Shown here piece after piece: positions 4,701-52,774 of a DNA stretch of 53,652 nucleotides. Source of the stretch: an uncultured Planctomycetia bacterium (GTDB lineage Bacteria; Omnitrophota; Gorgyraeia; 2-01-FULL-45-10); the NCBI GenBank assembly GCA_964450115.1, contig CAYVCD010000002.1:1-53652 (forward strand). The letters run 5' to 3'. The notes beneath the pieces are model-generated. The model made no database searches. It saw only the letters and a program-made list of their open reading frames with translations, and was not told the origin of the DNA. The stretch's first letter is position 1, and each line of letters begins with the position of its first letter. The position numbers were made by a program, and so were the translations under genes.

Positions 4701-7700
4701 GAGTTAAATGAAAGACATGCCAATCTATTAGTTAAATTAGGAGACGCCTCTAATTACCAGCATTACAGAAACCAGGCGCAGGATCTTCGCAAAATATTAG
4801 CTCAGCATAAAGACGGCGGGGAGGATGCGCACTTTTTCGCGGAACGAGTACCTCGTATGACTGCGACAGAGTTGGCGCATTATGTTATGAATAGCAGCAT
4901 AGGATATGTCCAGGCGTGTATTGCGATCAGGGTACTAAGTAATCCTGGACACGAAGCGCTGCTGAAAGGATTTTTGGAAAAATTGTATTCGGAGCTTGGC
5001 ATAAAAAATGCTATTGATACGCATTTGACAAGGATAAAAGTCGATGCGTATATTATAGAACTTAATAGCCAGAAAAAATCTGTTCCCGTGGCAAAGAGTA
5101 TCATCGCAAATCTATCTGCACCTGCGGCAACGCCAGAGCTTACTAATTCGCAAGTCGCATCGCTTACTAAAGATCCGCGGCTTCCATTGTTAGTGCTGAA
5201 GCTGTTTGATGCTTATCTGCCCGGCCATCCTAGATTCCATGTTGCTGCACATATCCGCTTCGACGTTACTACATATGAAGAAATTCGCAGTATAGTCGCA
5301 GAATGTTATCCGGCATTAGGGTCAAAATCATTGGTTAATATGCCATATTGTGAAGCTGAGGCAGAGCTGGAATCAGCCGCAAAACAAGGGCTATTAATTT
5401 CTCCGGATAGAAATATTAAAGCGGATAGCCCTCTCTACAATCTCTATAGTATAACACCAAAAGGTCAAGAAGAGGCAGATGCAATTTTCTCACTCTATAA
5501 GCATCTTTCCACTTCCGGAGTGGAAAGCGGTACAGCCAAACCAGTCGCGCCTGCGGCAACGCCAGCGCCGGCAGCGGAGCCTGATCAGGCAGCCGCGGGC
5601 GCTGTTATTACCGTAGGTGGGGAGACCTTAAAACTACGAGAAACGCCTGAGAGAGAGTTCTTTCCGCGAGGTGTGCGCAATGAGTTGAATCTCCTTCGAG
5701 AGACGATCTTCGGTGTCACGGAGGAAAAGGGCGCCTCTTTTGAGGATATAAAAGCGGCGCTTGCCACTCAATATTTCAAGTTTTTAGATACGGCTACGTT
5801 CACCGATATATCTTCGCTCACCGAAAACAGCCTGAATGCACATTATGAAGGAGGTTATGACGGCGGCACAGAGCTTGTGGGCCGCATAAAATATATGGTC
5901 GTCCTGCGCTATACGACCGGTATCGTTAGGCGCGTTCCCCATACGGCAATCGTCGTGCTTGCGTCAGGTAAGACAACCATCGATATGGCCGCAATAACCA
6001 ATTTTGTGTTGTATAAAGTCATAGACGAAGATTCGATGCCTGCCGCGCAAAGACTGATTATACCGCAGGTCCCTGCCGCCGAACCAGCCGCGGGCGCGGA
6101 GGAAATCTTATCCGCTCAGCGTATTTCCAGCATGACTGCCGATGGATTGGCTGTTTATGTGATGAAGGCGGAGAAGGGCTCGACGTACGTGACTGATATT
6201 TTAAGATTATTCACGCCGACATCATCAACACTTACAGGATTCATCACTTCGTTGTCAAAGAAGCTCGTTTTAGCGAAGCCTGCGGATATTGGATTGACCA
6301 TAAGATCTTTGGCGAGCGCGCTCAGGAAGCTTGCAGAAGTACCTGGATCTGTATCCGCGCAACTAGACCCGTCCATTAGCCCTGGAGAGTGGACAATCGA
6401 AACGAAGCAGATGTTGTTCAAGCGTTATACAAGTTTATTCGAAGGTCAGTCGGGCATTAAAGATGAGTTACGCAATATCATTGATCTGATCTCACGCCCG
6501 GGAGGCCTGAGGCCGTCAGTAAATAAGTTGAATATGGATATACACAATGGCGTTTACGGTGCCGCCTCCCATATATTGCCATCGATCTATTATATGGGAG
6601 CGGGAGATCAGGAATACTATCCTTTGCTTGTAAAAGATGACGCCGGCAACATTATCCCAGTGGTGATCAAGAATAGATTAGTAAGGGCCGGCGGAGAACA
6701 AATAAGGCGGGAGCTCAGTCCCTATATAATATCTAAAATGCCGGACGATGATATTCGCTTCATGATCAAGAATTTGTCGGCAGGCGAGCCCGCATTCGTC
6801 ACGGATTCATGGCTCGATTATCTCGACTTAAGGTACCTTGCGGCATATTGCGGCACGACAGAGGCCAGGCCTGCGGCAACGCCGGCGCCGGCACAAAATG
6901 ACACTCTTCAAGCGCATCTGCGAGATATTGCCGCGAGGATAGTGCCGGCTAACGGCGGTATCTTGGCTGCGGATGAGAGTACGGGCACGGCGGGTAAAAG
7001 GTTAGAATCGGTAGGCCTTCCTAATACTCCGGAGAATCGTCAGACGATGCGCCAGCTTATACTCATGGTGCCTGGGCTGAAAAATGCGGGCGTCAGCGCG
7101 GTTATTCTTTACAGCGAAACTTTTGATAATTTGGGTAAAAATGACGAAAACCTGGTGCAGGAGCATCTGGTGAAGAGAGGTATTCTACCCGGGATAAAAA
7201 CAGATGCGGGCCTTATCGATGATCCGGATAGCCCAGGCGAAAAACTTCCCGATCCAAAAGGCCTTCAAAAGTTACCTGAACTTTTGGCAAAGTATAAGGC
7301 AAAAGGCGCCGTCTTTACCAAGTGGCGCGTGACCCTATCCATCGATACTGTAAAAGGCCTGCCTACCGACGCTAATATCCGCAAGAATGCCGTAGTTTTG
7401 GCAAATTCCGCCAAACAGACGCAAGAAGCGGATTTAGTTCCTATTATTGAACCGGAGGTCTTACTGGACGGCTCTCACGATATTGCCGCCAGCTATAAAG
7501 CAACCACTCGTACTCTTGAGATAGTTTTTGAGGAACTGGCCAAGGCGGGCGTATGGCTGGATGGAGTCGTCTTGAAAACGAGTATGATCCTCTCTGGCAA
7601 TAAAGCCGCCAATCGCGCTGATAGCGAAATGGTGGGGTATCAAACGCTCAAGGGGCTTCTTAAAACGGTCCCCCAAGAAGTACCTGCGATAGTATTTTTA

Positions 7701-10475
7701 TCAGGCGGGCAAGAGGATGATGAGGCTAATAATAATCTGAATGCTGTTACTGTGACAAGCCAGACTAAATTCGAAACCGTCCGGGATGAGGCTGCGGCCG
7801 AATTGAAAGCCGAAGGAAAAACAGATGCCGCAGCAAAACTAAGCCAACTGAAGCAAGTCCCATGGCAGTTATCGTACTCTTTTGGCCGCGGGCTGCAAAG
7901 GTCTGGCTTGAGGGCATGGGCAGGCAAAAGCAAAAACTTCGAAAAGGCTCAAGAAGCTTTGCTAGAGGCAGCGCGCACAACACAAAAGGCGCGACTAGGC
8001 TTATTGCGGGCATGGCCGAGGCCAAGCGAAGTTTCGGAGGATAAGCGCGTAGTAGTGCTTATAAGCGGAGGCGAATCTGCGGGAGTCAACAATTATTTCG
8101 CGCAATTGGCGGTCGGACTTGCAGAACAAGGCTATTCGCTGGAAGTCGTGCGGTTCGGCCTCGACGGCCTGGTGCAACCCAGGGAAGAGTTCGCAAAAAA
8201 TCTAGTTTGGATTGACGAGAAGAGATCATACAGCATAATCAATATGCCGGGCGCAGTGGAGGGGACAGCGAGAGTCAGTTTAAGCGATGAGAAACATCCG
8301 GAATATATGCAAAACGCGGTCGCTAATCTTAAGGGTTATTGTAAAACGGTCATCATGGTGGGCGGCAGCGACCATATGGCCGAGGCGACAAAGATATCCA
8401 ATGAACTGCGCGCTCAGGGCATCAATGATATGGTGGTCATAGCGCTTCCGAAGAGCGTAGATTATGATGCGCCCAATGTCTATATGATAGGGGCCGATAC
8501 CGCGGGTTCTTACGCCAATAAATTTGTTATTCGCGCCGCACCTATGCCGTGGGAGAAGAAGGTGGTTGTGAGCGAAATTATGGGTAGGGATAGCGGTTAT
8601 CTGACAGTTAGCGCGGCAAACATGAATACGGCTGACAGGTCAGGATACACCGAGGCCGAATTGAGAAAGATGAAGGCAATAGCGCCTACTTTGATAGCCC
8701 TTATACCGGAATGGTCAGTGGATGAAAGAGGCGCATCCATCGTATCTCTTGCAGATGTCGTCAATGCGGTGAAACGGCGCATGAATAAATATGGCGCTGC
8801 CACTGTCGTTGTTTCCGAGGGATTCAGAATATCGCCGGATGACGAGTTACTCCGGAGAATACTGGAAAACCCGTTCTTTAAGGACAAATTTACGAATGTG
8901 AAAAAAGATAAACAAGGAAATCTGCTCTTTAACGAGATAGGTATAGGCAATTTCGTTACCGAGGCTCTTTCAATAGCGCTCGGCGAGGAGTTAAAGCTCG
9001 AACGGGAGAAGAACCTTTTGTACGAACTCCCGGGATACAGCTTCCGCTGTGTTCAGCCGGGTGAGATCGATATGGCAGTTGCGGACAGCGCAACGGCAAA
9101 AGCTGCGGATATGATAATCAATAGAAGAGATGAAGTTATTCAAAGGGGCGGCGTATGTATAGCAATAAAGCGCGGCATAAAATCCGCATCCGATATTAAA
9201 GCGGAGGTGCGCGACCTTCCGCAATCAAAAGGGACGGTAAGTCTTAAAGATTTTGTTATATTCACAAAAGACGAGCTGGCAGCTAAGAACGTGCTCGGCC
9301 TTGCCGACGAAAGCGCGCCACTTCCGGACATGGGGTCAGCCGCTTCACTGCCAGCGTTCCGTGAGAAAGACTTATCTCTGCTGGTAGAGGCGATTAATTC
9401 CCAGAGCGAATCAGCGCGTGATATGAGGAGATTGAATATATGCACCATAGCCGGTCAGGATGCCGACATGCTGATATCGCGGGTCGCATCGCACAAACCG
9501 TTGTCCTTAGCCGAGAGCTATGTGCATGAAAGAACGTCCGGCGCTGTCATGTATGTTACAGCGGGCCAATCCGGTGCTTTGTCATTGGGAAGATTGATCG
9601 ACGAGATAAACCAGCGCTATACGGCAAATCAGCATGGGATAAGATTCGCGAATGTGGTGATCTCTGCGAATGTCCTGTTTAAAGAAAACGATGAAACACT
9701 TGTAAGACTGCAAAAAGATAATCCGTCATTTGCAGCTCTTGTGGCGGCAGCCAAAAAAGATGCTGACGGTTTCCTGAATTTCGGCCGTCATATAGCGGAT
9801 GTTGTAACGATGGCGCTATCTATCGATAAAAAGATATCAGGCATAAGAAAGAATGTGCTCGGCGAATCGCTGAATTCTCTGCCGCAGGTCGCGCCTGCGC
9901 CAGCGCCTGAAGTGGCGATAGAAAGCAGCGTATCGGTACTACAGGGTATTATGAAGCTGGTCCAGGCGGAGTGGCTCGATGGTTGGCTGAATTTCGAAGG
10001 GCTTGCCAAGGCTGTGCAGCTGGCTGAGTGTCAGGGGAAGATCATAACAGATGACGATAATTCTACGATGATATTCTCCGAGATATCGACATTCGGAAAA
10101 CGCAATGAGGACGGCACCTATGAAGAGGGCTTAGGCATTATACTGCCAAGCCTCGTGAAGTCGGATATCAGGGTAGCCGTAGTGGCTACAACAAGCCGGC
10201 AGAAGGTGCTGATAGACGAGCTTAACGCAGGCCTGACCGAGGGCCAACAGATCATACATGCCGAAAGCGTTCCGGAGGTAATGGCAAAGATAAAGACGGC
10301 GCGCTACTATTACTTCAAGGTAGCGTCCGAAGCCGATGCCGGAACCGGCGTTACATCGATAACGATCATAGTAAAGAAGATACTCGACGCGATAGGGAAG
10401 GTAGCGGATATCATCAATCCTACAGTGATCGAACAGATGCACGAAGCTGCGCGTCAATTCGCGGCTGCGGCGTAA
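1779..10475 (+). CDS. giant multidomain protein 1 (2,898 aa): signal-peptide-like N-terminus, unknown modules, class I aldolase + PFK-like domains
   Basis: Uninterrupted 8,697-nt frame. AGGAG Shine-Dalgarno about 8 nt upstream of ATG 1779. N-terminus [30 protein letters not shown]. Seven Pro/Ala linkers split it into modules. Aldolase and PFK motifs are listed separately. Confidence 0.9.
   Translation: [2898 protein letters not shown]
5550..5573 (+). repeat. Pro/Ala linker nucleotide motif (copy encoding PAATPAPA)
   Basis: CCTGCGGCAACGCCAGCGCCGGCA is 23/24 identical to 6870-6893. Shorter versions (GCGCCTGCGGCAAC or close variants) occur at 4086-4099, 4515-4528, 5118-5134 and 9891-9911, plus a P/A stretch at 6071-6100. 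Confidence 0.8.
6870..6893 (+). repeat. Pro/Ala linker nucleotide motif (copy immediately upstream of the aldolase domain)
   Basis: CCTGCGGCAACGCCGGCGCCGGCA encodes PAATPAPA; 23/24 identical to 5550-5573. Confidence 0.8.
6900..7990 (+). other. class I fructose-bisphosphate aldolase domain inside giant ORF1
   Basis: [44 protein letters not shown] matches the class I FBA N-terminal signature. Also PIIEPEVL, Schiff-base-type Lys in VVLKTSMIL (AAA at 7575-7577), LSGGQE and SYSFGRGLQ. Confidence 0.85.
8043..9180 (+). other. phosphofructokinase-family (PFK-like, divergent) domain inside giant ORF1
   Basis: [15 protein letters not shown] (cf. SGGDAPGMN), [13 protein letters not shown] (cf. GGDGS), ALPKSVDYD (cf. 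PGTIDND), [10 protein letters not shown] (cf. MGR), PGYSFRC (cf. GHIQRGG). Several substrate-binding positions are substituted, so activity is uncertain. Confidence 0.7.
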
Positions 10476-19990: not shown

Positions 19991-22900
19991 ATGAAACTTA
20001 GGTTCAATAAAACATATAGGATCATAGCCGCAATGCTTCTTGTGGCTTTCCTCGCCCAAGACATCTCTTGGGCTTATCCAAGTCAAGCTTCTAATAGCAA
20101 TCTTGCTGTGCCGGGCTTGCAAAATGCGAGTGTATTAAGCAGACTGAAGAAGGTTCTTGCAAACAAACTTTTCAAGAAGAAGGGCAAGAGCTTCAATAAT
20201 TCCGCAATAGATACTACTATCAAAAAGGATCCAATTCCGCAAAACCATCTTTCTGCAAATATAGTCCTTCCGCCAGACATATCGGCTGCGCTAAAAGATA
20301 TCGATGAAAAGAATGCAAAGCATATAATCGATATGATCCGCCGTATATATAGTCATGAAAAAATAGGCATCATGCGCCAGAACCACTGGCTGGAATATAT
20401 CACAGGGCTTTTAAGAGACCCAAGAACGCAATACAAGATCGTTGCGTCAAAGGCAGCGGCTTTAATATTTGAAGATTCTTATCATCTGGATAAGATGGAT
20501 GAGGGGTCTTTGAGAAAGGCCGAAGAGGCATTGCTCGCAGCGCTTAACGATACCAATTTGCAGGTTCGTCTGGCCGTGATATCTGCTATGCATAAACTAG
20601 TTGAGTCCAGGTATGATGTAAGGGTCTATACGTTGAAGCAGATGGCCGGGCGCTTTGATGAGCTGATCAGAAAATATCATAAGGTAGATGCTACTCTTGA
20701 AGATGCTGCGCTGCGTGCGATGATGGCTTTATCAAGCGAAAGAGATATTGAGTTGAGCAGTGCATACGCGGTCAGGGCGTTCGATGAGAGCCTTAAAGCG
20801 CAGGCGAAGACGCTTGGAAAGAATATCCGGACCTTCCTGAAGGAAGAGAGGCGTTCCGACTTCAGGATGAGGGGCTTAAGCCGCGTTCTGGATAGGTGCG
20901 TCGCGGATTCAGGGATGGGGCTTACTGCTTATATAAGAAGCGTCTATTTCATGAAATTCATAGAGAGTCTTTTCAGCGACGAAAAAACTGATATCGCAAA
21001 AATAAAAGAATATGTGCTAAAGCTGCCGCGCGGCTCCAGTAATATTGATGGGCGGATAATTGTCTATGATCCTATCTTAAAATTGGCGGATAAAGAATTA
21101 TCGGAGATGTATTTTACTTCCGGGCAGGATGTCAGGTCATTATTGTCGTGGCGGAAGGATTCAGAGCCCGTCCAAGCCTTCGATTTCTACGGAGAAGTAT
21201 TTATGACGCAAAGCCGAGTGAGATTTCTTGAGATGGCAGATAAAGGACTCGTCTATTACGATGCAAACCAGAAGCGGTTTGTCACAAACCCCGCCACATT
21301 CATAGATGTGGCCTCGGGAGAAACCTCCATGCCGGATTCCGACCGGATAACGGATGGCGATGCCCTATCTATGTATATAGCTGAGTTAGAGGCTATGGAA
21401 TGCTATATAATGTCAGACGCAAAAAGCCATGAAAAAAACTTCTTGAGGCCACTTTTCGAGCTTCTATTCAATAGGCTCGAGAAGGACTTTGAAGGTTCGG
21501 AAGATTTTATAACATATTGCAGAGAATTGATAAGAAGATGGCCCGAGGGTTCATATGAGATAAGAAAGGCCATGAACGATGAAGAGGCTATTCTGCTGGA
21601 AAAGTTCGGGAAGATAAAAAACTCTTACGCGACAAGGAATGCTTCCATACAGCTTTACGGAATTCTGCTCTTCTATCTGACCCTGAAGCCGCAGCCCTAC
21701 CTGGGGCATCTCTATGATGAGTATATGAAGAACAGTCCGCCGCATAATCTGTCTCTATATAGAACGGGCATATCCTATCATACCAGAGGGGATAATGTGA
21801 TCTATTTCTTCCCGAAGAATCTTTTATTTAATGGAACGAATGCCGATGCGCTTGGAAAGCAAAGGAGGGGCGAGGCGCCTTTTGAGGACGCCAGGAAATC
21901 CGAAAACGCCGCAAAGATACTGGAGGCGGTGAAGATATGGCGCCGCGAATGTCCTAACCTCGAAAACAGGATAAAGCGCTTTGAGAATAATAGCACCGTT
22001 TCCGAGCTTATAATGAAGACATCGCTCATATTTTCGGATCCTGTGCACAACGTCATCAGAGTAGTCCATGCCGGACGGGGGAGGCGTCTCTTGTTTCTAC
22101 CGAAAAATTATCTCGACAGCCTGAGAGTTGACAGCGAATACGATATGAAGGAGCTTGCCGTATGGCTTAATTTTGCCCAGCGTTATCTGGATATACATGA
22201 TCACATGTCCGGCAGGAAGGTGGCGGCGCATCAGGTTCAAAAGGTCCTTTCCGAGCTGGTCAGAAGGTCTTTTGAAAAAGAGGATACGCATCTTGTCGAG
22301 CCGGAGATACTTAAATACAGAATGTCGCAGTTGATGAAGCAGGACGAGCTTATAAAATATAAGGATGTCTTAATTTCGCTTGCCCTTGAAGAGGCCGAAG
22401 TGCAGGTAATGGAAAAAATATCGCGTCCGACCAAGGACGAGCTCATGATTCTTGAAAACGCATATGGCCGCATCGCGCATGGCTATGAAGTGCTTGGCAT
22501 GAAATCGAGATCTGAAAGAGCATACAATGGTATGGCGGACATAATAACCAAGATCCAGTCCACGGACCCATGGGCGCTGCCTTATGAATTGCAGGTAGAT
22601 CTCATACTTACTGCATTGAGGTTCGGGCGATGGGAAGATTTTATCAATGAGCTAAAGATACTTCTAACCGGCAAGGGGTATCCGAGGGACATAAGATGGA
22701 CCGAACTCTCTTACATTATGAAAGAGATAATTACACCGGCGTCGATGGGCCCCAGAAGCCTGGAGAGCACTATCATGCGCGCATTGGCGGCTCAGATAGC
22801 GGCGGCTGATCCCAGATCGGCCGAAGTTATTAAAGAAACGGCTGACCAGGCCAACGGGATGTTAAGTAAATATTTCAAAAATCCATTCGGCAACCTGGGT

Positions 22901-25900
22901 ATGGACGACATAACCGGGTGTCCGAGCCCAGAGGCTCTAGAAAGGCTAAAGAAAGGCGAAGACAATCCGAACAGTTTGATTGATGTAGAAAATAGACTGG
23001 TAAGAAAAGTTGCGGGCTTTGAGAGCTGCACCGATATAGGAAGGATGGATCCCTACTCCATCAGCATGACCACGAGGACCGCCAATACCCTGGAAGGAAT
23101 GGGGTATATACTTAATGAGTTCAGAAAGCCCGTAGGCGATGCAGGCATCTCTGATGCCGAAGTTGCGCTAATAAATAAAAGCGCGGTTGTAGTGAACATG
23201 ATGGATAAGAATGGGCATGAACAAAGCTGTCTTTTAAAGATCCTAAGTAGAGAAGATCCTGTTGAGAAAGCGGTGGAAAATTTCTTAAGAAACGACCTGA
23301 GCGTATACGAGGGTTTAGCGAAAAATAACGGTTGCAAAAATATAATATTGGTTCTTGGTAAAAAACATCCATCCTATCCGACAAATATAATAGTGCCTTC
23401 AGAGCGGGGAGAAGACATTCTTATAGTAAGCTATGGATCCGGTGAACAGCCCGAGCATATAAACGCAGCTTCGGCTGGAGATGCTGTCAAGAAGTCAGGG
23501 ATATCGGATCCTGATGCGCTAGAGGCTTTCTTAAAGATACAGAAAGAGGCTAGTCTGCAAAGCGTATATAAAGCCGCGGAATACTTTATAGGGATAGGCA
23601 CACCGGGAGCCGAAAGGTTATTGAAGATGGCCGTAACTAAGAAGGGCCATTTCCAAGAAGAATTTTTAGGCGAATTTATTGAAGCCAGGGCAGTAGAAGA
23701 CAATATAAGATATTCGAGAGTGATAGAGTTGGGCATGGAAAGGTTCGGAGCGGAAGTGGATTTTGTATTGGAGGTCGATAGGTCAAAATACCAGTCTAAT
23801 ACAAAAGGCGGCTTTGAGCTGGAAGATGGAGTTTATCTTGGCGAGTCTAAAACGTCAGATAAGTCCAACTCTCTTGAAAGGGTAATTGAGGGCGCGGTCT
23901 CGGATAAAGTGGAAAGATACCTGCGCGTCGCGCTGAATAAGCGGAAATCCGAATCCGGAAATCCGAACGCTCCTTTAATAAAGGGCATAATATTTGCCAT
24001 TGGCGGCGAAACAGTTCGGTCGGAGGGCGTTGTAGATTTTACTATTACCCGCCTAGAAGAAGGCGATAACCTGCGTTCCGATGGCATCGGAACATTCCTG
24101 GCGCTCATTCCCGATACGATAGTAGCCAGAGGGAGGGACAGATTAACATTCAAAGAGAGGTCTTTTATTTCCGATCTGCTTTCAGATTTAAAAGCGCGCG
24201 GAATGTTGGATAGCGCGCGCATCTCCTCTCTTGTCCCGATCTTGAAAGCCGCGCTGATGGAATACGGCCTTAGCCGCACACAGTTTATGATATCCGATGC
24301 TATAAAAGAAGCCGGTGCAGATCCGTATATAGGACAAACGCAGAATAAGGAGATATGGAACAGCGTATTTCGCGCTCTTGGCGCCAGGACAGGCATATCG
24401 CTTAATATGGATTTCCAGAGCCAGAAATTTCTCATTGACCGCGAAGCTTCGGTAAACGGCAGGACCGATCTTGAAATAAGCTACTGGCAATCCGGTTTGA
24501 GCGAATTCAAGAATACGAGGGGCAGAGCAAGATGTGAGTTCGAGATAGCCGGCCTGCCGGGCAGGTGGGTTCCGTTAATAGATGAGCATGATCAAGTAGT
24601 CATAGCGCATATATCCGACAGCGGTAGCCAAAAAGCCCTCAATGATTATTTTGTTTTCCGCCCTGATGTGACTTCAAAAGATTTATTGATAGACAAAGAG
24701 TTGGAGAGATTAGCCCTCGGGTCAGAGAGGCTGTTGTATTATGCGCGCAGCGGAGCAGATCCTGTGCCTGTGCGCATTCCGGTAACGGTGTCTTATGACG
24801 AAAAGCTTACTTCGAATGTTTTGATAGGGTATATAAAGGCTGCTATAGGCGGAAGCAGACTTTTATATTATTTTGGGCAGCAGATCATGAAGAGCCCGGC
24901 GCGTTGGGAGGCTTGGGGACTCGAGCCGGAATTAGGTAGTGCCGGCGCCATAAAGGCTGTGGCCAGGCCGTTTGGTATCTTAGGCGACAAAGACGAAGGC
25001 TCGTTGGTATTTGACAGGCATGAAAAAATGGCCAGGGTTTCGGATATCGTCGTTCTTGACAATAAGGGCAAATTCGGGATCGTGGCGGAGTTTGGTTTTC
25101 ATGATATGTTCCAATTGTACCATAAATATGCAAATAGCTTCATCTTCATGGCGCAGCATGGCAGTAAGATATCCGGTCAAAGCTCGCGTTTGCCGCAGAG
25201 CGTATTGTTGTACGCTGATGACATAGCTATAGGCGGTAAGAAAGCGGCCCGTGAGAGTCAGGGTATCTCCGCAAGGAAATTAATTCTTGAAAGACTCGAG
25301 CAAATACTTGATCGCGCATCAAGCTCTTACCAAAAAGAGCCAAATATGCTCATGCCTAGAACGGTCTATTTTATGCTGGGCGGCGCTCTTACCGCAGATA
25401 GGCCCGCTTATTTTAAACTTCCAGTAATAGCACAATTCCGATGGCACAAAAAAGAAGGCAAGTATATCCCGGTGAAGAGCGGCCTGAAGATACTGGAGGG
25501 TGAGGATAATCTGGAAGGCTTGTTCCAGGCAGCCTACTCTTATATCAAGCGTGCGGAAGGCTTAATTCCAGGGCCTCTTGCCAAGCCCGAAGCTACAGTT
25601 GCTCCTTCATTAGAAATACCGGGATCAGCGGATATATTATCAGCGGCATTGGTGCTGGGGTTGCGCATTGCGGATTCTGTACCAGGCACCGCCAATGCTA
25701 TCGATGACGTCGTTAATAGCAAGGCATTGGTGCTATTTGCAGATGATATTTTGGAGCGTGGTACAGCTGCCGACCTTGCCTATACATTAAGAGAGTCTTC
25801 GACTCTGAATAATTCCACGATCGTCCTGTACGGAAAGAGGCCGGGCAGAGCGGAATTGCTGGAGAAGATCATAAGCTCATCAGCTCAAGATAAGGGCATA

Positions 25901-26335
25901 AAGGTCGTGAAGATAGCTCCGGAGGACCTGCAATCTTTAAATGGCGGGAAAGATATAAATGTCGAATTCGCCGATGAGACAAAAGAGCTGGAGCTTCTCT
26001 TGAGGCACGTAAACTCTCGCTACCAAATAAATAACGGCATGCTCATGGGAGTCATTAAAGGCAGGACCGATGCTTTGTATGAATCCGGTATAAAGAACCT
26101 GGCCAAAGAAAAACATGTTCCTATAGTCTCCTTCGAGCATATAGAGTCCAACGATGTGGATAAGGAGATATACTCATTCAGAGAAGCCTTGTCGTTATTG
26201 ATCTCTATAACGAACGATACAACTCCCCTTAAAGACAGAGAGTGGTTTAAGCTGTTAAGGCCGATAGAAAAAGAAGATATCGATAGGATATATCAGGATT
26301 ACAGGCGTGCTCTAGAGGTGGCTATAAATGCGTAA
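19991..26335 (+). CDS. giant protein 2 (2,114 aa from ATG 19991), signal-peptide-like N-terminus, otherwise uncharacterised
   Basis: Uninterrupted frame. ATG 19991 gives MKLRFNKTYRIIAAMLLVAFLAQDISWA|YP. The track's TTG at 19943 lies inside the leader hairpin and is less likely. Only a HEAT-like repeat was recognised by eye (LLAALNDTNLQVRLAVISAMHKL, about 20521-20610). The stop overlaps the ORF3 start. Confidence 0.85.
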   Translation: MKLRFNKTYRIIAAMLLVAFLAQDISWAYPSQASNSNLAVPGLQNASVLSRLKKVLANKLFKKKGKSFNNSAIDTTIKKDPIPQNHLSANIVLPPDISAALKDIDEKNAKHIIDMIRRIYSHEKIGIMRQNHWLEYITGLLRDPRTQYKIVASKAAALIFEDSYHLDKMDEGSLRKAEEALLAALNDTNLQVRLAVISAMHKLVESRYDVRVYTLKQMAGRFDELIRKYHKVDATLEDAALRAMMALSSERDIELSSAYAVRAFDESLKAQAKTLGKNIRTFLKEERRSDFRMRGLSRVLDRCVADSGMGLTAYIRSVYFMKFIESLFSDEKTDIAKIKEYVLKLPRGSSNIDGRIIVYDPILKLADKELSEMYFTSGQDVRSLLSWRKDSEPVQAFDFYGEVFMTQSRVRFLEMADKGLVYYDANQKRFVTNPATFIDVASGETSMPDSDRITDGDALSMYIAELEAMECYIMSDAKSHEKNFLRPLFELLFNRLEKDFEGSEDFITYCRELIRRWPEGSYEIRKAMNDEEAILLEKFGKIKNSYATRNASIQLYGILLFYLTLKPQPYLGHLYDEYMKNSPPHNLSLYRTGISYHTRGDNVIYFFPKNLLFNGTNADALGKQRRGEAPFEDARKSENAAKILEAVKIWRRECPNLENRIKRFENNSTVSELIMKTSLIFSDPVHNVIRVVHAGRGRRLLFLPKNYLDSLRVDSEYDMKELAVWLNFAQRYLDIHDHMSGRKVAAHQVQKVLSELVRRSFEKEDTHLVEPEILKYRMSQLMKQDELIKYKDVLISLALEEAEVQVMEKISRPTKDELMILENAYGRIAHGYEVLGMKSRSERAYNGMADIITKIQSTDPWALPYELQVDLILTALRFGRWEDFINELKILLTGKGYPRDIRWTELSYIMKEIITPASMGPRSLESTIMRALAAQIAAADPRSAEVIKETADQANGMLSKYFKNPFGNLGMDDITGCPSPEALERLKKGEDNPNSLIDVENRLVRKVAGFESCTDIGRMDPYSISMTTRTANTLEGMGYILNEFRKPVGDAGISDAEVALINKSAVVVNMMDKNGHEQSCLLKILSREDPVEKAVENFLRNDLSVYEGLAKNNGCKNIILVLGKKHPSYPTNIIVPSERGEDILIVSYGSGEQPEHINAASAGDAVKKSGISDPDALEAFLKIQKEASLQSVYKAAEYFIGIGTPGAERLLKMAVTKKGHFQEEFLGEFIEARAVEDNIRYSRVIELGMERFGAEVDFVLEVDRSKYQSNTKGGFELEDGVYLGESKTSDKSNSLERVIEGAVSDKVERYLRVALNKRKSESGNPNAPLIKGIIFAIGGETVRSEGVVDFTITRLEEGDNLRSDGIGTFLALIPDTIVARGRDRLTFKERSFISDLLSDLKARGMLDSARISSLVPILKAALMEYGLSRTQFMISDAIKEAGADPYIGQTQNKEIWNSVFRALGARTGISLNMDFQSQKFLIDREASVNGRTDLEISYWQSGLSEFKNTRGRARCEFEIAGLPGRWVPLIDEHDQVVIAHISDSGSQKALNDYFVFRPDVTSKDLLIDKELERLALGSERLLYYARSGADPVPVRIPVTVSYDEKLTSNVLIGYIKAAIGGSRLLYYFGQQIMKSPARWEAWGLEPELGSAGAIKAVARPFGILGDKDEGSLVFDRHEKMARVSDIVVLDNKGKFGIVAEFGFHDMFQLYHKYANSFIFMAQHGSKISGQSSRLPQSVLLYADDIAIGGKKAARESQGISARKLILERLEQILDRASSSYQKEPNMLMPRTVYFMLGGALTADRPAYFKLPVIAQFRWHKKEGKYIPVKSGLKILEGEDNLEGLFQAAYSYIKRAEGLIPGPLAKPEATVAPSLEIPGSADILSAALVLGLRIADSVPGTANAIDDVVNSKALVLFADDILERGTAADLAYTLRESSTLNNSTIVLYGKRPGRAELLEKIISSSAQDKGIKVVKIAPEDLQSLNGGKDINVEFADETKELELLLRHVNSRYQINNGMLMGVIKGRTDALYESGIKNLAKEKHVPIVSFEHIESNDVDKEIYSFREALSLLISITNDTTPLKDREWFKLLRPIEKEDIDRIYQDYRRALEVAINA

Positions 26336-29300
26336 TAAATATTTAAGTTTAAAGCCCGGGCTAAATGGGTTGAGGGAAGCTTCCCCCCGAGTAGCGACTC
26401 TTATCCCAACCCGGGCTTTTCTAATGAAGATAATGGCAACGATCTTGATCGCGGCGTTCATCGCGCAGGATATCGCGTGGGCGAATCCCGAGATAGGCCA
26501 GGGTGTGCCTTCAAAGAGCTCGCTGCAGATACCGCTGATGTTGGGTCCGATGCGCGCCGGTGATGTCGGCATGCTTATGGAAGCGAAGGTCCAGCAGATA
26601 ATACGCTCGATACCGTTAGAGGAGCTTAAAGAGCGCAAATATAAATTGCCGATCGAAGAGAGGGGCATAAGATTTCAAATAACCTTCAGCGTAGATTCGA
26701 GCGAAAGGCTTGTGGCGAACTGCACGGCACCTGGAAAAAATCCGGTCAAACGAAAGTTTGTCATTAAAGACGACCTCACGTTCGCCACTGAGAACGAAGA
26801 GACGCCGAAAGAAGCATCATCGCTTCCGAAGTTCAGCGAAGCGCTTGCGAAGATGGATGCGCACATGAGGGAGAGCGCTTTTGAAAGGGCTAGGAGCGAT
26901 AACTATGAATATCATTTTGATGAAAATTCGCCTCAATTCCTGCTTCATGCCATCTTCATATATTTCGGAGACACTCCAGTCAATGACTTAAGCGCTATAG
27001 ATATATACCTGACCGTTATGGCCGGACAGAGTGACCAAAAGGTGAACCTTGCTCAGTCTTTTAATTTATTAAGGGGCATTATCCGCACCATACATAAGGA
27101 TGGCGAACTCTTACCTCCGCGTGAAACATTCAATAAAATGAGCCCTGAATCAATCAATGCCGTAATTGAAAAGATGCTCGCATTAAGAGAGAGCCATCTT
27201 AAGATCATCGATGAGTCGGAATCCAAATTTAAGGAGCTCATCCCTGACGTAGAATTTGCGTACGATTATCTGGACTATTTCAGAGGTCGTGTTGTCGAAT
27301 TTTATGATGAGCTCGCGGCAAGATACGCGGCGCTACTTGCGGCGAAGCACGCCAAAAAGGGGAAATCGGGCAAAAGCGAATATCTAGGCATGCTCGGAGC
27401 GGGGTTATTGCAAAAGCTATATGATAAGGTCGCCGATCACTTAATAACGCGATATGTAATTTATCTTCTCAGATGGCAGTTAAGCTCACCCTTGATAGCT
27501 CCTCTCGTAATATATTTTGGCGGGGGTTTTGCAGCTGTTGTATTGACCAATATAATAGGCGGTATTGTATTCTTCTGGCTCGATAAACTTATATTGAAGG
27601 AGCCGGGCAAATTATTCTCCGGCTGGAAAGATTTTGCCGGGGAATATCTTTTATATCTGGCAAGGTGGCAGCTGACTACTCCACTGATATGGATATTTAC
27701 ATATTATATGGGCACGGGCCTGTCATCAGCCATATATGCCAATATAATAGGTGGACTGATATTCTTCTGGGTCGATAGACGGATCTTGCGTCCTTCAGAG
27801 AGTTCGAAAAAGAGAGAAGACAGTCTACGAAGATCCGGCTCAGGATCTGTTCACGAACGCCATCTCTCCGATGTGCCGACCCCCGGAGCAGAGCCGATAT
27901 CCGATAGCCCCGCGGAATTGCTCAGGTACAAGCTCGACCAGGAAGCGCTGTGGAAGAGCGTGAATGATCCGCTTGCCGAAAGGAAGCGCGGCCCGCCTGA
28001 TAGGCGCGTCAATCTTGGCGGACCTGCAAAAAAATCTTCACATCCTACGATCACGCCGGTAATGCGCAAACGCGGTCAATTGATACGTAAGGTCAAGACA
28101 AGGCTGCATCTTTTAGGCCTAAGGCCTCTTGCTGTAAATGTTGTAGACGAGATCGCACGGATGGCGTCTAAGGACCCTTCCATAGAGAAGCTTAGTTTTT
28201 ATATGGTAATTAATGCCGCAAAAGCCAACCATATCAAATTGCAGTCCAGAACAATAGATAAGGACAAAAGGATTGCCGAGATAATAAGGCTGGCCAGAGT
28301 ATTTTACAGAGATAACGGGAGAAAGCCCACAGCCAGAGAGACTGTCGCCCTTATTAACAAAGAGGATCCTTACGCTGGCTGTACTTATTACAATTTTATG
28401 AAGTGGGTGGAAAAGAATGCTATAGCATACGATAAACTCGGGGTGTTTAAGCAGCATGCCGGATTGGGTGGTTTCGTGGACGAGGCCATTAAAAAGGCAA
28501 AAGAGATAGCCGGACAGACCGGTAGTAAAAAAATAAGACTGGCCGATCTGAGAGAAAAGCTTAAATTAAAACCGCCGGCGTTTGCAAACCGCGTAAGAAG
28601 TTTGAAAGAAAGTAGCGGTGTGGATTTATACGACGAGCTCAGTAAGGCCGGGTTCGAAATCATGCGAGGAGCATCCGCCAGCACGCCTCCGGCAAAGGAT
28701 GCAGGCAGGCCATCCACGCGTTCCGCTAAGCGTCCCGACAAAAATAAACCCCTGTATATTCCGATAGCGGTAGTCAAGACCCTGATCAGGCGTGCGCTTA
28801 GAAACGACGTCGTTCCCGATCAGTACCGCGCTACGATGTCAGCCGGCCCGAAAGGGCTTGACCGTCAGCGGGTAGAAAATTCTATAAAAGAATACGAAGC
28901 TCTTATGGATTTTAAGAGCGCAGATCACAGCCGGATAGATGCGGCAATAGATACCTTAAATGCGCTTAGCAGGATGGATTCTAAATATTATACATTGAGT
29001 TTATTGAGAAGAGCGGCCAGCGTTCTGGATTATGAAGATAAATATAGATTAAAGGCTATGAAGAACGCCGCGAGGCGACTATTCGGATCCATCCCTGATA
29101 ACCTCGTATTTATTTCCTCATCACCAGCAATTAACAGCAAGAAAAACGGCTCAGAGCCGGAAAGTGAAAAAATAATATCGGATCAGGTCGGGAGACTGAT
29201 CAATACCGCGGGCCAGTTCCCCAGGCTGACTGCGATCGGTGAGGTGAAATTGAGCGTCCTGTACGGGTTGGGTGACAAAAGTGCGGGAGATACGCTGGCG

Positions 29301-32300
29301 ACATCCAATTTACGTCTGGTGATCTCAATAGCTAAGAAACATAGAGGGCCGCGCCTTCAGTTCCAGGATCTTATACAGGAAGGGAATATAGGCTTATTAA
29401 CGGCTGTCAGCAGGTTCAAGCCTCAGAAAGGATACAAATTTTCCACATATGCGACATACTGGATCAGGCAGGCGATACAGAGATATGTTGAAGATAATAA
29501 GAATCATATAAGAATACCATCCTTTAGATATGACAGGGTGAATAAATTCCGCAAAATTTGTGAAAAAAAGCAGATAGATCCTTTTGATAAGAAAATGGAT
29601 CCGTCACAAATAGCTAAGGCGATCGGGTGGAAGGTGACCGAAGTAAAAAGAATGTTAGAAATATTATCGCTTATGTCAACAGCGTCTTTAGACTCTGCTC
29701 CCGATGGTAAAAATAAGCATGACATAGAATTTTCCTACGCAGCCAATACCGTTCAAAATGATCAAGGTCCTGGTATTCTTGAGCGGCAGGATGTGATCGA
29801 TGCCATTGTAAAGAATACTATAGAGCTGATAAGACAGAGGTCCAGGGAGAATAAAGAAAGAGATGCATCGGTATTTATATTGAGGATTCTCCCGGTCTTA
29901 TTGGGTACCGGCAAGAGCGTGCCGACCCTGAAAGAGATGAGCATGCGTTTTAAAATTTCGAAAGAGAGGGTTCGCCAGATTGTTAATAAATGCCAAACTG
30001 CTCTTGAGGATGCGTTGGCCTACATGGGCTTAAAAGTAGAAGATCTCGGTATGACCAAGAGACGTTCTGTAGCGAGCGACAAGGGTGAGCCGAAAGAATA
30101 TCACGGGCCGAGTGCCGGAAGAACGTCACCGATACGTTTACGCAGTCGCAATCTTCCCAGTGCTCCGGCTCGAGTGAAGCCGCGATTCAAAGGGTCGCCC
30201 TATGCCGTATTTCTTAATCTTAAAAAAGGTTCAGCATCGGTAGAGGAACTGCTCGGGATGATAAGCGGCGGAATAAAGAGCGCCCAGACGATAGAAGATG
30301 ACTTGAGAATATTACGCAGGGCCGGCGTAGTGGCTTCGTTAAGAGTAAAGTCGAGAGGCCCTGTCTTTAGAATATACGGGAAAATCGGTAAAACAAAGTT
30401 GGCAAGCATAGAATCGTTGCTGGAAGGATCTTACAGTCCGGGTAATATTACAAAAAATAGCCGCGGGACAGGCAGACAATTTGTAATAAGAAAATTACGC
30501 GAAATAGTCCTTTTTGATCCCGCAAGAACCGCCAGACAGTCGCCTGAGGAAATAGGCCGGGAAGCAAGAACGCTCCTGCTCAAGGAAAGCCTTGAGAGCC
30601 TCGAGGCCACTATCATGGCGTCTATGGTAGATGGCAAGGAAAGAACGGACCTTGTAAAGCTGATACGCGCTCGTATAAAAGGGGTCATTTCAGGACCATC
30701 TCCGGCCCGGGCCGAATGGGATGAAACAAGATGGACCGGTTCGGACACGCTCCCCAAGCGCCATTCGCTCGCCATACCCGGCGCGGAAGATGATATTATT
30801 AATACTTTTACGATAGGAAAGGGGCCGAGAAGATTAGCTGAGGGCGGAGCTATCCACTGTAATTATCTCTTCGCATACGATCCTGCGTCAAAGATAGGCG
30901 CTGCGGCGCATATCAGTTTAATAGATATGGACCCATTAAATGATAAAGATGTGGAGAGCGTTTCTAAAGGTATCAGAACTTTGGTAGAGACATTACAGCA
31001 TGCGGGAGCTAACGCGGCAGAACTGCGATTCACCATAGTGAGAAAAAAGGACGTCGCTCCTATCGAAGAGCTGTCTTTGCGGACCGAGGCTATGCTGGTC
31101 AATGCTTTTGGTAAGCTTGGGTTAATAAATTTTAATAGATCCCTAGTCGATAATGACTCGATGGTATTTTTGGATCTCGCAACCGGGGGCATATCACAAG
31201 AGGATAGGTCAGTAACCAATACCAAAATATCTGCTGATATTCTCAAGGCTATCGAATCGGATATCGCCGGTTTCGGATTGCGCACCTGTCTTGCCAAATC
31301 AGCGTTGCTTATATATATTTTGCGATCTTTAGGTGAAGAGGCAACGCTCATCGGCATGTTTCGCAAGGATGAAGACATGCCTTTTCAGTATTTGGTGCGT
31401 ACCGTTAGATGGGGGGACAGGGATATATCTCCTTTTGGTGGGGAGGCCGATGATTACGAGCGTACGGTCCCGGTACCTGAAACAGATTACGAAAGAGGCT
31501 TGTCATCTTTAAGAGAAGGAGGGTATCTTGCAAGAGCCGACCTGGAAATTTTAAACGCTTATAAAAAGGTGGTCCCAAATGCATTTGACATAGATGATGG
31601 CACGCTGATCTATGCTTTTGATTATGACGGAACTCTAGCGGATGCCACCGGACGCATGCAGGATGAAATTTCCGCGAGCTTGATCGCGCGCCTTAAGGCG
31701 GGTAAGAAGGTGGTTATGATAACAGGCAGGAACACCGCTTCACTGCATCATTATTTCTCATCCTATATACCTTTAGAGACACTTAAGCGGTACCATAAAA
31801 ATATTATATTTATGGCGGAATTGGGAACCGAAGTCGGGCGCTTCAACGAAGATGGAGAGCTATATGTAGACCGGAAGAACAGTATGCCTCTCGATAGCGC
31901 GAAAAAACGCCAAATAGACGCGGTCTGTTATGAGGTGCTCCAGAAGCGCGGGCTGCACAATATAGGTGGAATAAATACAAGGATACTCCCTCATACCAAT
32001 CCGGGAGAATATCCCAAAGGCAAATCTATTGAAATAGGTTTGGAAAAATACGGGACTGTCACCATCCGGTTCTGGGAAGAGTCTTTAATGCATCATATGC
32101 CCGGGGTCGTCGAGGACCTGAGGCAGGGGTTAGTAGATATCGGATTTTATGTTGCGGCATCAAATGCAGCTATAGATATATCACCGATCGACAAGGCCGA
32201 CGCTGTGAAGAAGCTATTATCGATTATTAAAGACGAAGATGGCGAAGATATACCGCTTTCGAGTGTAGCAGTGTGTGGTGATAGCCAAAACGATTACGCT

Positions 32301-35300
32301 ATGCTGGGTATGAGTGTTGTCAAAGCAATATATGTAGGAAATAAAGAAAAGAAGGACCTGCCTGCCGCCGTTGCGGCAAACGTGCATATTCCTGCGAAGC
32401 GCGGTCCGGACGGGGTATTGGAGATATTAAGGAGTGGGTCGTTCTCTGCGCCCACGCAGGGTGGCGAACCCGCCGCCATGTCGAAGCCGGAGCCGGAAGC
32501 GCAGATCGCGCGCGGCGTCAATACGACAAAATTGTCCGAAGAACTTGTTGCCGAACGGAAGTTGATCTACGATATCCATAGCCGATGGCCGGCGGCGGTC
32601 ACGGTATTCGGGAGCGCGAGGATCCCGGAGAGCGATCCGTCATTCGTTAAGGCAAAGGAGCTGGGAGTCGCATTATACCGGGCAGGCCTTTCGATAAGGA
32701 CAGGCGCCGGTCCGTCTATGATGGAAGCGCCTTTCATGGGCTATCTCGAAGAACGGGAAAGATCCGGCGCGGCCAAGGAGCTATGGAACACGACCCAGGG
32801 CATACGCATAGAAGGCCTGCAGATCGAGCAGCATACGACCAAGTTTGTTGAGGATAACTACAGCTTTGATCATTTTGTCACAAGAAAGATGGGCCTTTAT
32901 AATAACTGCCGCGGCATAGTGGTGTTTCCCGGGGGATTCGGAACGGTGGACGAACTTATTGAAGTATGGTTCAGGAAGATACCGATGGTATTGATCGGCA
33001 AGAGTTACTGGCAGCCTATCATAGACGCCATTTACCGAAGCTGGGCGGCAAAAGGATGGATGGAGTTGATCGAAGAGAAGCCGCTGATCACGGATTCGAT
33101 CGAAGAGGCAGTGGCTCATATCCGTTCGTCCAAAAAAGATCTTATGATAGAGTCAAGGGAAGATATGGAAGCGGCGAATGAGGATATAAGGTCCTCTCTT
33201 GTGACCCTCGAAACCTGGCAGCCGGCTGTTACCGTTATGGGTCAATCGGAGCTCTTAGATAATGTAGAAGCGGACGTGTTGACCGAGATGACGAAAGAAC
33301 TGCTCGCAAAAGGGATACCTGTGCGCTCGGCGACCGCGAACCATTACCTGAAAGTGACTCTGGAGAATGCCGCAGGGGACAAAAAAGATATGCTCCAGGC
33401 AGTACTGGCCGTTCCAAAGGAGAGCGCGCTAGTCCCGGGGCCGAATCGCATAGTTACCCATAATCTATCTAATCATCACGTTCTGGTAACCGAGAATTCG
33501 CGCGCTTTCGTCATTCTGCCCGGCCGCGCGAAGACACTCAGCCGTCTCTTTGACCTGGTAACGGTGATGCAGACAAAAAAAGTCAAGACCAGGCCCATCA
33601 TATTAGTAGGCAGTAAATTTTGGCAGCCGATAAAAGACGCGATCAAGGATGCGGCTCTCGAATATCCCTCAGGGCAGCTCATAAATCCGGAAGACGCTGA
33701 TTTGCTTCAAATAGTCGACACCGCCGAAGAAGCTCTTCGGATCATCAACATTGTAGATGCAGGTAGCATAGTTAGGGATGCGACCCGAATCGCGCGCCCT
33801 GGCGACATGCCGCCCGGCCCGAGAAATCCACGCGACAGATTCTTTAAACAGCCGCCGGATGAAGTATCGGAAGCGGCTACCAATAAGACGTATAAACCCG
33901 TGTCGCCTATCGGTGAAGACGATATTGTTACAGCGTTTAAGAAGGGATGGGAATACATCTGGATGCGCAGCACCAGAAAGGCAAAAGGCCGGTTCCTGCG
34001 GGAGGCCGCCAAAGCGCTGAAAAGAGAGCCGGGAGTATTAATAGTTAATGATTTAACATATGGGCTAAAGCGGATATGGGGGCACTCTGCGAGCGGGCTT
34101 ATAATATGGACAATGAAAAAATTCCGTATTAAGAATCCGACGGCTGCAATGAAGGCATTAAAGCGATATGTCGGTATAAAGGCAGTGCCGTGGACTAGAT
34201 ACGGGCAGCCTATCGGTGAAGACGATATTGTTACGGCGTTTAAGAAGAGATGGAAACACATCTGGGTGCGCAGCACCAGAAAGGCAAAAGGCCGGTTCCT
34301 GCGGGAGGCCGCCAAAGCGCTGAAAAAAGAGCCTGGAGCATTGACTGAACCCGATTTAAGGAATGGATTAAAGCGTGCATGGGGACGCTCTGCGAATGGG
34401 CTCACCAATTGGGCGAGAGAAGAATTTGATGTTCGGAGTTCAAAAGCGATTATGGAAGAATTGATGCGGTATGCCGGTATAGAACCAACGTCTCAGTCTA
34501 GACGTGTGATTGTAGAAGATATCACAGAAAAGACAATTTTACAGCATCTTAAGAAAAGGACCCGGAATATATGGTTAAGAAGCAACAGAGATGCCAAGAG
34601 AATGGCAGTCCTTTTACTTGCCAGAGAGCGGAACAAAGAGCCCAGAAAATTAAATGCGAAAGATTTTATTACTCCGATCCCATTATTTGGAAATCGTAGT
34701 ATAGGCGGAATTATACATTGGGCGCGCCACCACTTAGGTGTACAGGCGGGTGCTATGAGCAGTTATTTGCAAGCTATCCTTGACCTTAAAGAGTACCTTG
34801 GGATAGAAGATACTATTGTGCCGAAGAAGAGATGGGAAGCCAAGGTGGAGGCAGACTGGGGTGAGGTATGCGTCATACTGGATAAGTATGAGCATCTGAA
34901 AACCACGGAAGCAAATGTCCGCACGATCCTTAAAGGATGCCGTTTTAATAATAAGGAAACCGATCTGGCTATGGGACGGGAAGTTCAAAGAGGGAATCCA
35001 GCCGCTAGGGAAGCCATGATGATAGTTTATGAGACCGCCCTCGACTATCCGGCGGCAGGATTCAATAGAAGATATCCCGATATCAGTGTCGATGAATTCA
35101 AGTCCGCCGGCAGGATCGCTCTTGCCGGATGCGTTGAGCGCTATGATCCGGAAAGGGGTTTCGTATTCATAACGTTCATAGGCTACAGGAGCGACAGTAA
35201 GCGCGTCTTCGGACGCATCTCGGGTGCGATGGTCGATCTTGTCAGGAAAGTCCATGGCACCAGGCGAAAGGGGAAGGTGCGCGAAGTCCAGGGCGGAGCC

Positions 35301-52750: not shown

Positions 52751-52774
52751 TTATAAAAAAACTAGGAGGGGAGC

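Follow-up and report, generated by a model that had tools for sequence, protein, structure and literature searches.

The question raised by this locus is what a signal-peptide-like N-terminus does on giant proteins whose remaining domains look cytoplasmic. The locus is a 53.6 kb stretch of bacterial chromosome from a Candidatus Omnitrophota genome (positions 1 to 53,652 of contig CAYVCD010000002.1, called the window here; guanine plus cytosine (GC) content 46.9%), and it encodes three giant open reading frames (ORFs), which by translation give proteins of 2898 (ORF1), 2114 (ORF2) and 8380 (ORF3) amino acids (aa). The explanation that we favour, with a probability of about 0.5, is that the shared N-terminus is a dedicated, conserved Sec-type signal peptide of a family of large modular proteins specific to Omnitrophota. 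The proteins of this family begin with a leader of some 30 aa, which is followed by a short conserved motif at the N-terminus of the mature form, then by hypervariable cargo and last by a conserved alpha/beta domain that ends in Ala at the carboxyl terminus. An earlier note on this DNA had suggested that a family of giant proteins shares one tag for export or sorting, and this is well supported, the tag being an N-terminal module of large Omnitrophota proteins only.

All three giant genes are on the plus strand, and translation exactly reproduced the N-termini given in the earlier note. The leader of ORF1 (1779..1862) reads MKKVNRIISAIVLAAFLCNTFLVDASFA and is followed by QD; its parts are MKKVNR, IISAIVLAAFLCNTFLV and DASFA, with a 4-residue insertion and F in place of the consensus W. 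The leader of ORF2 (19991..20074) reads MKLRFNKTYRIIAAMLLVAFLAQDISWA, then YP, and is divided into the n-region MKLRFNKTYR, the h-region IIAAMLLVAFLA and the c-region QDISWA. That of ORF3 (26424..26483) reads MKIMATILIAAFIAQDIAWA, then NP, with the parts MK, IMATILIAAFIA and QDIAWA. The likeness of ORF2 and ORF3 seen before was recovered by alignment (aa 10-41 of ORF2 with aa 2-37 of ORF3), and the mutual similarity of the three proteins is confined to the N-terminus, no other high-scoring segment pair being found. Nearly all synonymous codon positions differ between the leader DNA of ORF2 and ORF3 and the amino acids are kept, which shows selection on the leader at the protein level and not a recent duplication of the DNA.

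The hydrophobic segment is kept at the protein level across more than 100 clusters, so the true starts do not lie downstream of it, and ATG 19991 of ORF2 concurs with the annotation of the relative P0002. For ORF3 the gene caller took ATG 26328; a good Shine-Dalgarno sequence precedes this codon, and the protein would then have 8412 aa, 32 of them before the leader. In L001, a metagenome-assembled genome of Candidatus Omnitrophota from Lac Pavin and the closest genome (nucleotide identity 89-94%), the homologue of ORF3 starts MNTRIIKTIAVILLAAFIAQDIAWANP and has a stop codon 5 codons upstream of its ATG; thus the extension of 32 residues is not conserved and is strain-specific at best, and the leader is the conserved N-terminus. 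In the window the same stretch (26328-26423) has an in-frame ATG with a strong Shine-Dalgarno GAGGTGG and overlaps the stop codon of ORF2 (ATGCGTAATAA), and the homologous stretch of L001 is broken by stop codons; in the strain of the window ORF2 and ORF3 may be translationally coupled. An assembly artefact was also considered for ORF3 and was rejected, as the assembly of a second sample yields the identical 8412-aa product. The contig ERZ27248961:k141_86793 (71 kb) in the ENA encodes a protein identical to ORF2.

A leader profile of 60 columns was searched against 1.84 billion cluster representatives (E<=1e-3) and matched 114 of them, always at the N-terminus, each match starting within residues 1-46 of its protein. 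The longest protein matched in this search had 6042 aa, and ORF3 itself was not among the matches. It was this unindexed search that gave the family, because the word-indexed search is insensitive to short motifs: there, the first 340 aa of ORF3 had no match at E<=1e-3, and a short N-terminal profile found a single fragment, P0003. Every family member bearing a name comes from Omnitrophota, and P0006 and P0080 are relatives that share the N-terminus of ORF1. No Pfam or NCBIfam model matched the leader when the N-terminal 200 aa were searched.

The motif also goes with protein length, a relation that the earlier note had asked about. The matches are heavily skewed to large proteins (64 of 116 with at least 1000 aa, 16 with at least 4000 aa), the short ones are on short contigs or flagged 'partial', and ordinary small proteins are without the motif. 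Members with both conserved ends have 606-8380 aa (median 2561), ORF3 being the longest. Metagenome contigs were scanned with the degenerate pattern [AS]F[LI]A[QY]D[IV][AS]W, with a 23-column core alignment, since an alignment of six sequences was too diverse. This gave 13 confirmed loci with a GC content of 35-52%, in all of which the motif stands 6-14 codons after an ATG at the ORF start; 12 of these ORFs run off their contig, the longest with minimum lengths of 3368 and 2146 aa. When about 190 kb (the window and five loci) were scanned in six frames, the leader motif appeared solely at the starts of giant ORFs.

The leader has about 28 residues (median length 30 aa), with a basic n-region ending in R/K, a hydrophobic core of 12 residues and [QY]-D-I-[ASV]-W-A, followed by [YNH]-P-[DE]. 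With the invariant Asp as position 0, the logo is R/K(-14) I I [SA] x [IV] L [IV] x [ATS] F(-4) [LIF] A [QY] D(0) I [ASV] W(+3) A(+4) [YNH] P(+6) [DE]. It carries 3-4 bits at about 10 positions over 116 sequences from contigs of 35-52% GC, an information content somewhat inflated by the selection of the sequences with a profile. Judged from the sequences, these N-termini are a family-specific conserved leader, whose likeness far exceeds chance and goes beyond what generic signal peptides would give.

A second motif follows 8-20 residues beyond the leader in three flavours, NNKLAPxSFF, NLAVTGLQN and STLQIPSFF. In ORF2 (20090..20125) it is SNSNLAVPGLQN, of the NLAVTGLQN flavour; in ORF3 (26511..26546) it is SKSSLQIPLMLG, of the STLQIPSFF flavour; and in ORF1 (1887..1910) it is SSTLGISL, an 'S-T-L-Q/G-I-P/S' form related to STLQIPSFF. 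The further likeness of ORF1 and ORF3 after the leader, noticed before as a run of about 40 aa, holds in so far as both have the family-wide motif S-[ST]-L-[QG]-I-[PS]; its 'MLG' part is limited to the closest relatives.

The basic n-region, the hydrophobic core and the small residues at -3 and -1, described earlier for the three proteins, represent a canonical n-h-c anatomy at fixed geometry throughout the family. R/K is at -14 in 112 of 115 leaders, and the core has 12 residues in 17 of the first 19 sequences examined, ORF2 and ORF3 included; that of ORF1 has 17 owing to its insertion. At the putative cleavage site, 114 sequences have A and two have S at position -1, position -3 is A47/S32/V29/T4/L3, and a bulky W occupies -2. 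Pro is near-invariant at +2 and never at +1, where Y/N/H/Q are found. Substitutions at the junction thus follow the rules of signal peptidase I: A/S at -1, A/S/V/T/L at -3, and Pro excluded from +1. Other kinds of signal were rejected. There is no lipobox for signal peptidase II, Cys being at +1 in two members only; no RR motif for the Tat pathway exists in the three leaders or the consensus; and the consensus F-P-x-x-I-R-I-I-S-A-I-L is without the Gly-Phe and the Glu at position 5 of a type IV prepilin-like leader.

The N-terminal flank of the core is more positive than the C-terminal flank in 114 of 114 members (mean charge +3.6 vs -1.4), which predicts that the C-terminal side is translocated (N-in/C-out). 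The earlier note had left room for an uncleaved anchor with the bulk in the cytoplasm, and this polarity disfavours it. By Kyte-Doolittle hydropathy the leader is the only strongly hydrophobic segment of ORF2, and ORF1 has one further window at threshold, at aa 1760, which lies inside an aldolase barrel and is not a membrane segment. The leader is likewise the only hydrophobic segment in 20 of 64 long members. ORF3 has a duplicated membrane unit of about 64 aa (27453..27791, plus strand; aa 344-456) with a weak DUF2512 match only, in which strong hydrophobic segments at aa 368-390 and 432-450 each come after a weaker one; the count of transmembrane (TM) helices after its leader is therefore 2 or 4 by hydropathy, an even number as had been supposed.

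The other conserved end is at the C-terminus. Over its final 200-240 residues ORF2 is similar to 12 other family members, in each case at their extreme C-termini, and the C-terminus of ORF3 matches those of eight others (P0040, P0029, P0076, P0087, P0038, P0065, P0049 and P0059). These domains are of type 2 in ORF2 (25721..26332, plus strand; alpha/beta, Rossmann-like, ending ALEVAINA) and type 3 in ORF3 (50940..51563, plus strand; alpha/beta, ending LLQFLHSA). AlphaFold2 modelled type 2 as a three-layer alpha/beta fold with a predicted local distance difference test score (pLDDT) of 84, and type 3 with 66; the last elements of both are a strand, L-x-P, a helix and the invariant terminal Ala. 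The tail of ORF1 (10353..10472, plus strand) ends ARQFAAAA and agrees with the family. Of the 76 members with 600 aa or more, 57 have Ala as the last residue, compared with a background frequency of 8.4%, and the tail consensus is L(-4) [IAV] [ASN] A. The type of the C-terminal domain co-varies with the N-terminal flavour. Types 2 and 3 were not linked by hhalign, and their possible homology is suggested by the shared terminal motif only. Searches of Pfam, NCBIfam and PDB sequences with the C-terminal domains gave no meaningful match, and Foldseek with the type-2 domain returned generic Rossmann folds only (template modelling score <=0.42), without a specific PDB match. A C-terminal domain of the autotransporter type or of the type IX secretion system was rejected on its fold. 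Some tails of the family (LVAA, LAAA, LIAA) resemble ssrA/ClpX degrons or the apolar C-terminal degrons of the Prc/Tsp type.

Between the two ends lies the cargo. ORF1 (1779..10475, plus strand; 2898 aa) is a divergent member of the family and has a class-I fructose-bisphosphate aldolase module (6915..8003, plus strand; Pfam E=2e-88) and a phosphofructokinase module (8046..9116, plus strand; PF00365, E=3.5e-23). Aligned to 1a5c, the aldolase keeps AADES, KWR, EPE, LKTSM, LSGG and GRGLQ, so that all catalytic residues are retained, and it has no cysteine. It is nearest to class-I aldolases of the eukaryote type (Plasmodium, plant, muscle; E about 1e-64). ORF2 (19991..26335, plus strand) has no Pfam domain. 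ORF3 (26424..51566, plus strand; 8380 aa from ATG 26424, or 8412 aa from ATG 26328) has three sigma-70-like domains, two LOG domains, a pyridoxal phosphate (PLP)-dependent enzyme, several HAD domains, a GT9 glycosyltransferase, an APH-type kinase, a methyltransferase, winged-helix repeats and five XRE helix-turn-helix (HTH) domains. The sigma-70-like modules are at about aa 873-1290, 2900-3142 and 7688-7990, and about four tandem winged-helix-like units of about 55 aa precede the five XRE-type domains at 45675-48203 (aa 6418-7260), an unusual density of DNA-binding modules for one polypeptide. ORF3 also has two kinds of linkers rich in proline and charged residues. One is near-identical in three copies (43308-43523, 46680-46883 and 48966-49181) and reads PEPGSPEEAYQRQVNLPGIGxPSRHSLRFRQSD; the other is near-identical in two (33684-33893 and 35529-35735) and reads IARPGDMPPGPRNPRDRFFKQ. 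The linkers are absent from every other family member searched, and may be traces of module duplication or processing sites.

Two Pfam surveys, of 30 further members in all, found HATPase_c, sigma-70, Ser/Thr kinases, GGDEF, NDK, cytidylate kinase, GNAT, PALP, ATP-grasp, DnaJ, Fis-type HTH, CheB, MTHFS, PTA, UDPGP, ribulose-phosphate epimerase, glycosyltransferases, TPR and HEAT. Typically extracytoplasmic domains in these 30 members were a few glycoside hydrolases and one ILEI only. The conflict between leader and cytoplasmic-type cargo, from which the earlier note had started, is thus real and systematic across the surveyed members. An argument from radical-SAM domains, whose Fe-S clusters could not be loaded after Sec export, was dropped, because the surveyed members have no CxxxCxxC motif. 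The giant proteins are poor in cysteine (0.42% vs 0.91% in 24 housekeeping proteins of the same contig, p=1.7e-5). Proteins that have to pass through membranes in an unfolded state are likewise low in cysteine, and the value fits an adaptation to export.

The genomic setting shows how variable the cargo is. On the plus strand the window has the order truB, ribF, ORF1, pnp, uppP, ftsK, rodZ, a miaB-like gene, pgsA, pgpA, ORF2, ORF3, and on the minus strand a thpR-like gene and a short cinA; the neighbours of the giant genes are ribF, pnp, pgpA, thpR, cinA and recA. An exact look-up of pgpA had no match. Two other Omnitrophota genomes (L017 and L018) share the order ribF-rpsO-pnp-dut-uppP-ftsK-rodZ-miaB-pgsA-pgpA-[giant(s)]. 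After pgpA, L017 (9738-33679) has a leader protein of 6042 aa with unrelated cargo and then a second leader protein, inside which the record ends; L018 (9629-24528) has one of 4816 aa, also with unrelated cargo, followed by thpR and cinA as in the window. The interval 3' of pgpA (19754-51566 in the window) is hence a hypervariable slot for one or two leader-bearing giants with unrelated cargo. L017 and L018 both lack an equivalent of ORF1, the giant that lies between ribF and rpsO. When 52100-53284 of the window is compared with 25112-27599 of L018, cinA has just 161 aa in the window, a PncC-like C-terminal domain alone, and 430 aa in L018; between cinA and recA the window has an ORF6N (antirepressor-type) gene, which is missing in L018 and may be a small insertion.

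L001 has a different sequence in place of the C-terminal third of ORF2, the C-terminal domain included, and differs in ORF3 by large indels; by nucleotide comparison the differing regions are 23436-26451, 28025-28908 and 31246-32482. Between the window and L001 the giant genes have a ratio of nonsynonymous to synonymous divergence (dN/dS) of 0.19-0.43, and their neighbours one of 0.03-0.13; dS is 0.14-0.24 for the giant genes and 0.35-0.54 for the flanking housekeeping genes. The lower dS suggests recent recombination of giant-gene segments. The giants are real, constrained and fast-evolving genes that probably recombine, and the variable cargo together with dN/dS fits interaction or effector genes better than housekeeping metabolism.

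From the leader we infer the following route. The basic n-region and the very hydrophobic core of 12 residues would direct the protein to SecYEG, probably co-translationally via the signal recognition particle, with the N-terminus in the cytoplasm; signal peptidase I would cleave after W-A, and the cargo would be threaded unfolded out of the producing cell's cytoplasm. Because it needs adenosine triphosphate (ATP), S-adenosylmethionine, PLP, acetyl-CoA, RNA polymerase, DNA or Hsp70, the exported cargo could work only in the cytoplasm of another cell, unless it has a non-catalytic role at the surface. A later step of sorting or delivery might read F-4, D0, W+3, P+6, D/E+7, the second motif and the C-terminal domain, since these residues are conserved beyond what Sec requires. 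Secreted and surface proteins usually combine an N-terminal signal with a conserved C-terminal domain, and by this analogy the layout of the family would count for export. The predatory or episymbiotic lifestyle proposed for Omnitrophota would also fit export; delivery into a host is purely what we infer. Whether the leader is cleaved or stays as an anchor, export of the bulk from the producer's cytoplasm is, on present sequences, rather probable.

The anchored form of this export, which we hold to be unlikely, would have the leader as an uncleaved type II signal anchor, N-in, with the bulk translocated and tethered as a periplasmic or surface layer and a helix face docking a partner membrane protein. 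R/K(-14) to A(+4) makes 19 residues, followed by a helix-breaking Pro; I-12, L-8, F-4, D0 and A+4 form an i/i+4 stripe on one face of a helix; and W and Y are placed like an interfacial aromatic belt. Such an anchor predicts the same charge polarity as a cleaved signal. However, the uninterrupted core has just 12 residues and a full span would bury Q and D, while A/S/V at -3 with A at -1 is the pattern that signal peptidase I selects, and the cofactor problem of the cargo is identical to that of the cleaved signal. Much less credible is the idea that the conserved ends have no targeting function and are homologous handles for cassette recombination, or generic likeness to signal peptides; we consider it very improbable. 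Strains of 90% identity have different cargo and even a different C-terminal domain by exchange, and the low dS of the giants relative to flanking genes suggests recombination, both of which handles would explain. Yet the synonymous sites of the ORF2 and ORF3 leaders are saturated with the amino acids kept, so that selection acts on the peptide and not on the DNA, the bits at about 10 positions are far above generic signal-peptide likeness, and the profile matches are N-terminal without exception.

Several observations weigh against export, and most of them speak for a different role of the leader, as a membrane tether or targeting device whose bulk stays in the producer's cytoplasm, so that the giants would be membrane-associated multi-enzyme or regulatory scaffolds of a nanobacterium. 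The cargo is of the cytoplasm type throughout (ORF1-3, the 30 members and the loci L006, L010, L015, L017 and L018), with sigma-70, HTH, J-domain, GGDEF, kinase, GNAT, PLP enzyme, phosphofructokinase, aldolase and radical-SAM-like modules, and depends on cytoplasmic cofactors; adhesin, Ig-like, dockerin and beta-barrel domains are absent from the same set; and the aldolase of ORF1 appears catalytically intact. No secretion genes are found beside the loci in the window, L017 and L018. The C-terminal domain is, by its model, Rossmann-like as is typical of cytoplasmic proteins, and it is not a known translocator. In 33 isolated hairpins of family members the loops are poor in K/R and the outer flanks rich (0.087 vs 0.170, p=2.8e-5), as expected if the flanking bulk is cytoplasmic, and no hidden helix was found between the leader and the first hairpin; this polarity is equally expected for spontaneous insertion from the side of the bulk, whichever side that is, and so is not decisive. 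A whole-protein TopPred-like parity count (26 proteins vs 20) is too noisy to be used. West-Roberts et al. likewise suspected wrong extracellular calls for glycolytic domains. Nevertheless we find the scaffold doubtful, since it needs either an N-out/C-in leader or no translocation, against the polarity in every member and the near-invariant R/K(-14), D0 and D/E(+7). The bacterial N-out anchors ZipA and TatA have a charge pattern opposite to that of the leader. ORF1, ORF2 and the 20 long members named above have no other hydrophobic segment that could bring the chain back. Complete turnover of cargo between syntenic loci would also be odd for housekeeping scaffolds.

The general paradox of export and cargo in Omnitrophota giant proteins is previously published. 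Published DeepTMHMM surveys called signal peptides (SP) on 48% of long Omnitrophota proteins, a figure that does not refer to these sequences specifically. Omnitrophota giants with predicted signal peptides were described by West-Roberts et al. (2023, bioRxiv 10.1101/2023.11.21.568195), and 'SP-only' and 'SP+TM' classes of giant proteins in bioRxiv 10.64898/2026.06.07.730766; both noted the paradox of metabolic domains predicted to be extracytoplasmic. Like those of the window, the published giants are very long modular ORFs of the same phylum with N-terminal signal-peptide calls, and their modules predicted extracytoplasmic include methyltransferase, HATPase, GNAT, HAD and glycolytic domains. 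In contrast, they are known by predictor calls and not by a conserved leader; the words 'leader' and 'motif' are absent from the text of 10.64898/2026.06.07.730766. Archaeovorins (West-Roberts 2023) have more than 30 thousand aa, many TM helices and a divergent SecA_DEAD, and are next to loci like the type II secretion system and pilZ. The giants of the window are not of this type: they have 2.1-8.4 thousand aa, 0 to 2-4 hydrophobic segments and housekeeping neighbours, and no SecA Pfam match at E<=0.01. They also differ from dockerin-type Omnitrophota giants, since Pfam found no dockerin, discoidin or laminin-G in ORF1-3 and the 30 members.

Among better known systems, the closest model in which such cargo makes sense outside the producer is the MARTX toxins. 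These are secreted proteins of 3.5-5.3 thousand aa with conserved ends and variable effector enzymes acting in the target cytosol; they have a C-terminal signal for the type I secretion system, glycine-rich A/B/C repeats and an internal cysteine protease domain (CPD), and no N-terminal signal peptide. Unlike them, the giants of the window have no RTX or CPD Pfam matches and do have a signal-like leader. The ESPR signals of type V autotransporters and TpsA, and the YSIRK/GS signals of Gram-positive surface proteins, carry a conserved motif beyond Sec needs on large exported proteins only, and are usually paired with a conserved C-terminal sorting or translocation domain. The motif of the window leader and its position differ from theirs, since the conserved residues belong to the h- and c-regions and extend over the putative cleavage site; the domain at the C-terminus is alpha/beta and Rossmann-like, without beta-barrel or LPXTG; and the cargo is enzymes and regulators and not adhesin repeats. 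Type V autotransporters end in a beta-barrel with an aromatic residue, whereas the domain of ORF2 is alpha/beta in its model and ends in Ala. Polymorphic toxins (CdiA, Rhs, MafB and others) join rapidly exchanged cargo to a conserved N-terminal module for trafficking, and a genome has several such paralogues. Here, however, it is the middle of the protein that varies and the C-terminus that is kept, with no recognisable toxin domains, and no candidate immunity gene was found 3' of the giant ORFs. As far as searched, the conserved leader is not described in the literature on Omnitrophota giant proteins, and as far as tools and literature show, the leader, the second motif, the Ala-terminated domain and the pgpA-thpR slot appear new.

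Views on the location and function of Omnitrophota giant proteins have so far rested on topology predictions that their own authors distrust. ORF1, ORF2 and about one third of the long members are clean test cases for it, because their localisation rests on one peptide of 30 residues. If export is refuted, a textbook signal-peptide signature misleads predictors for a whole class of proteins. If it is true, sigma factors, J-domains and ATP-dependent enzymes leave the cell, which would point to delivery into a host cell. On a speculative reading that we rate as improbable, the leader, the mature motif and the Ala-terminated domain would form an undescribed Omnitrophota pathway for sorting and delivery into the cytoplasm of host or prey. 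With equally little confidence, one may suppose that it would deliver strings of sigma-70, XRE, J-domains, kinases, acetyltransferases and glycolytic enzymes, and that the pgpA-thpR slot would be an effector cassette. Such a pathway, if it exists, would mean a MARTX-like metabolic and transcriptional hijacking by an ultra-small episymbiont.

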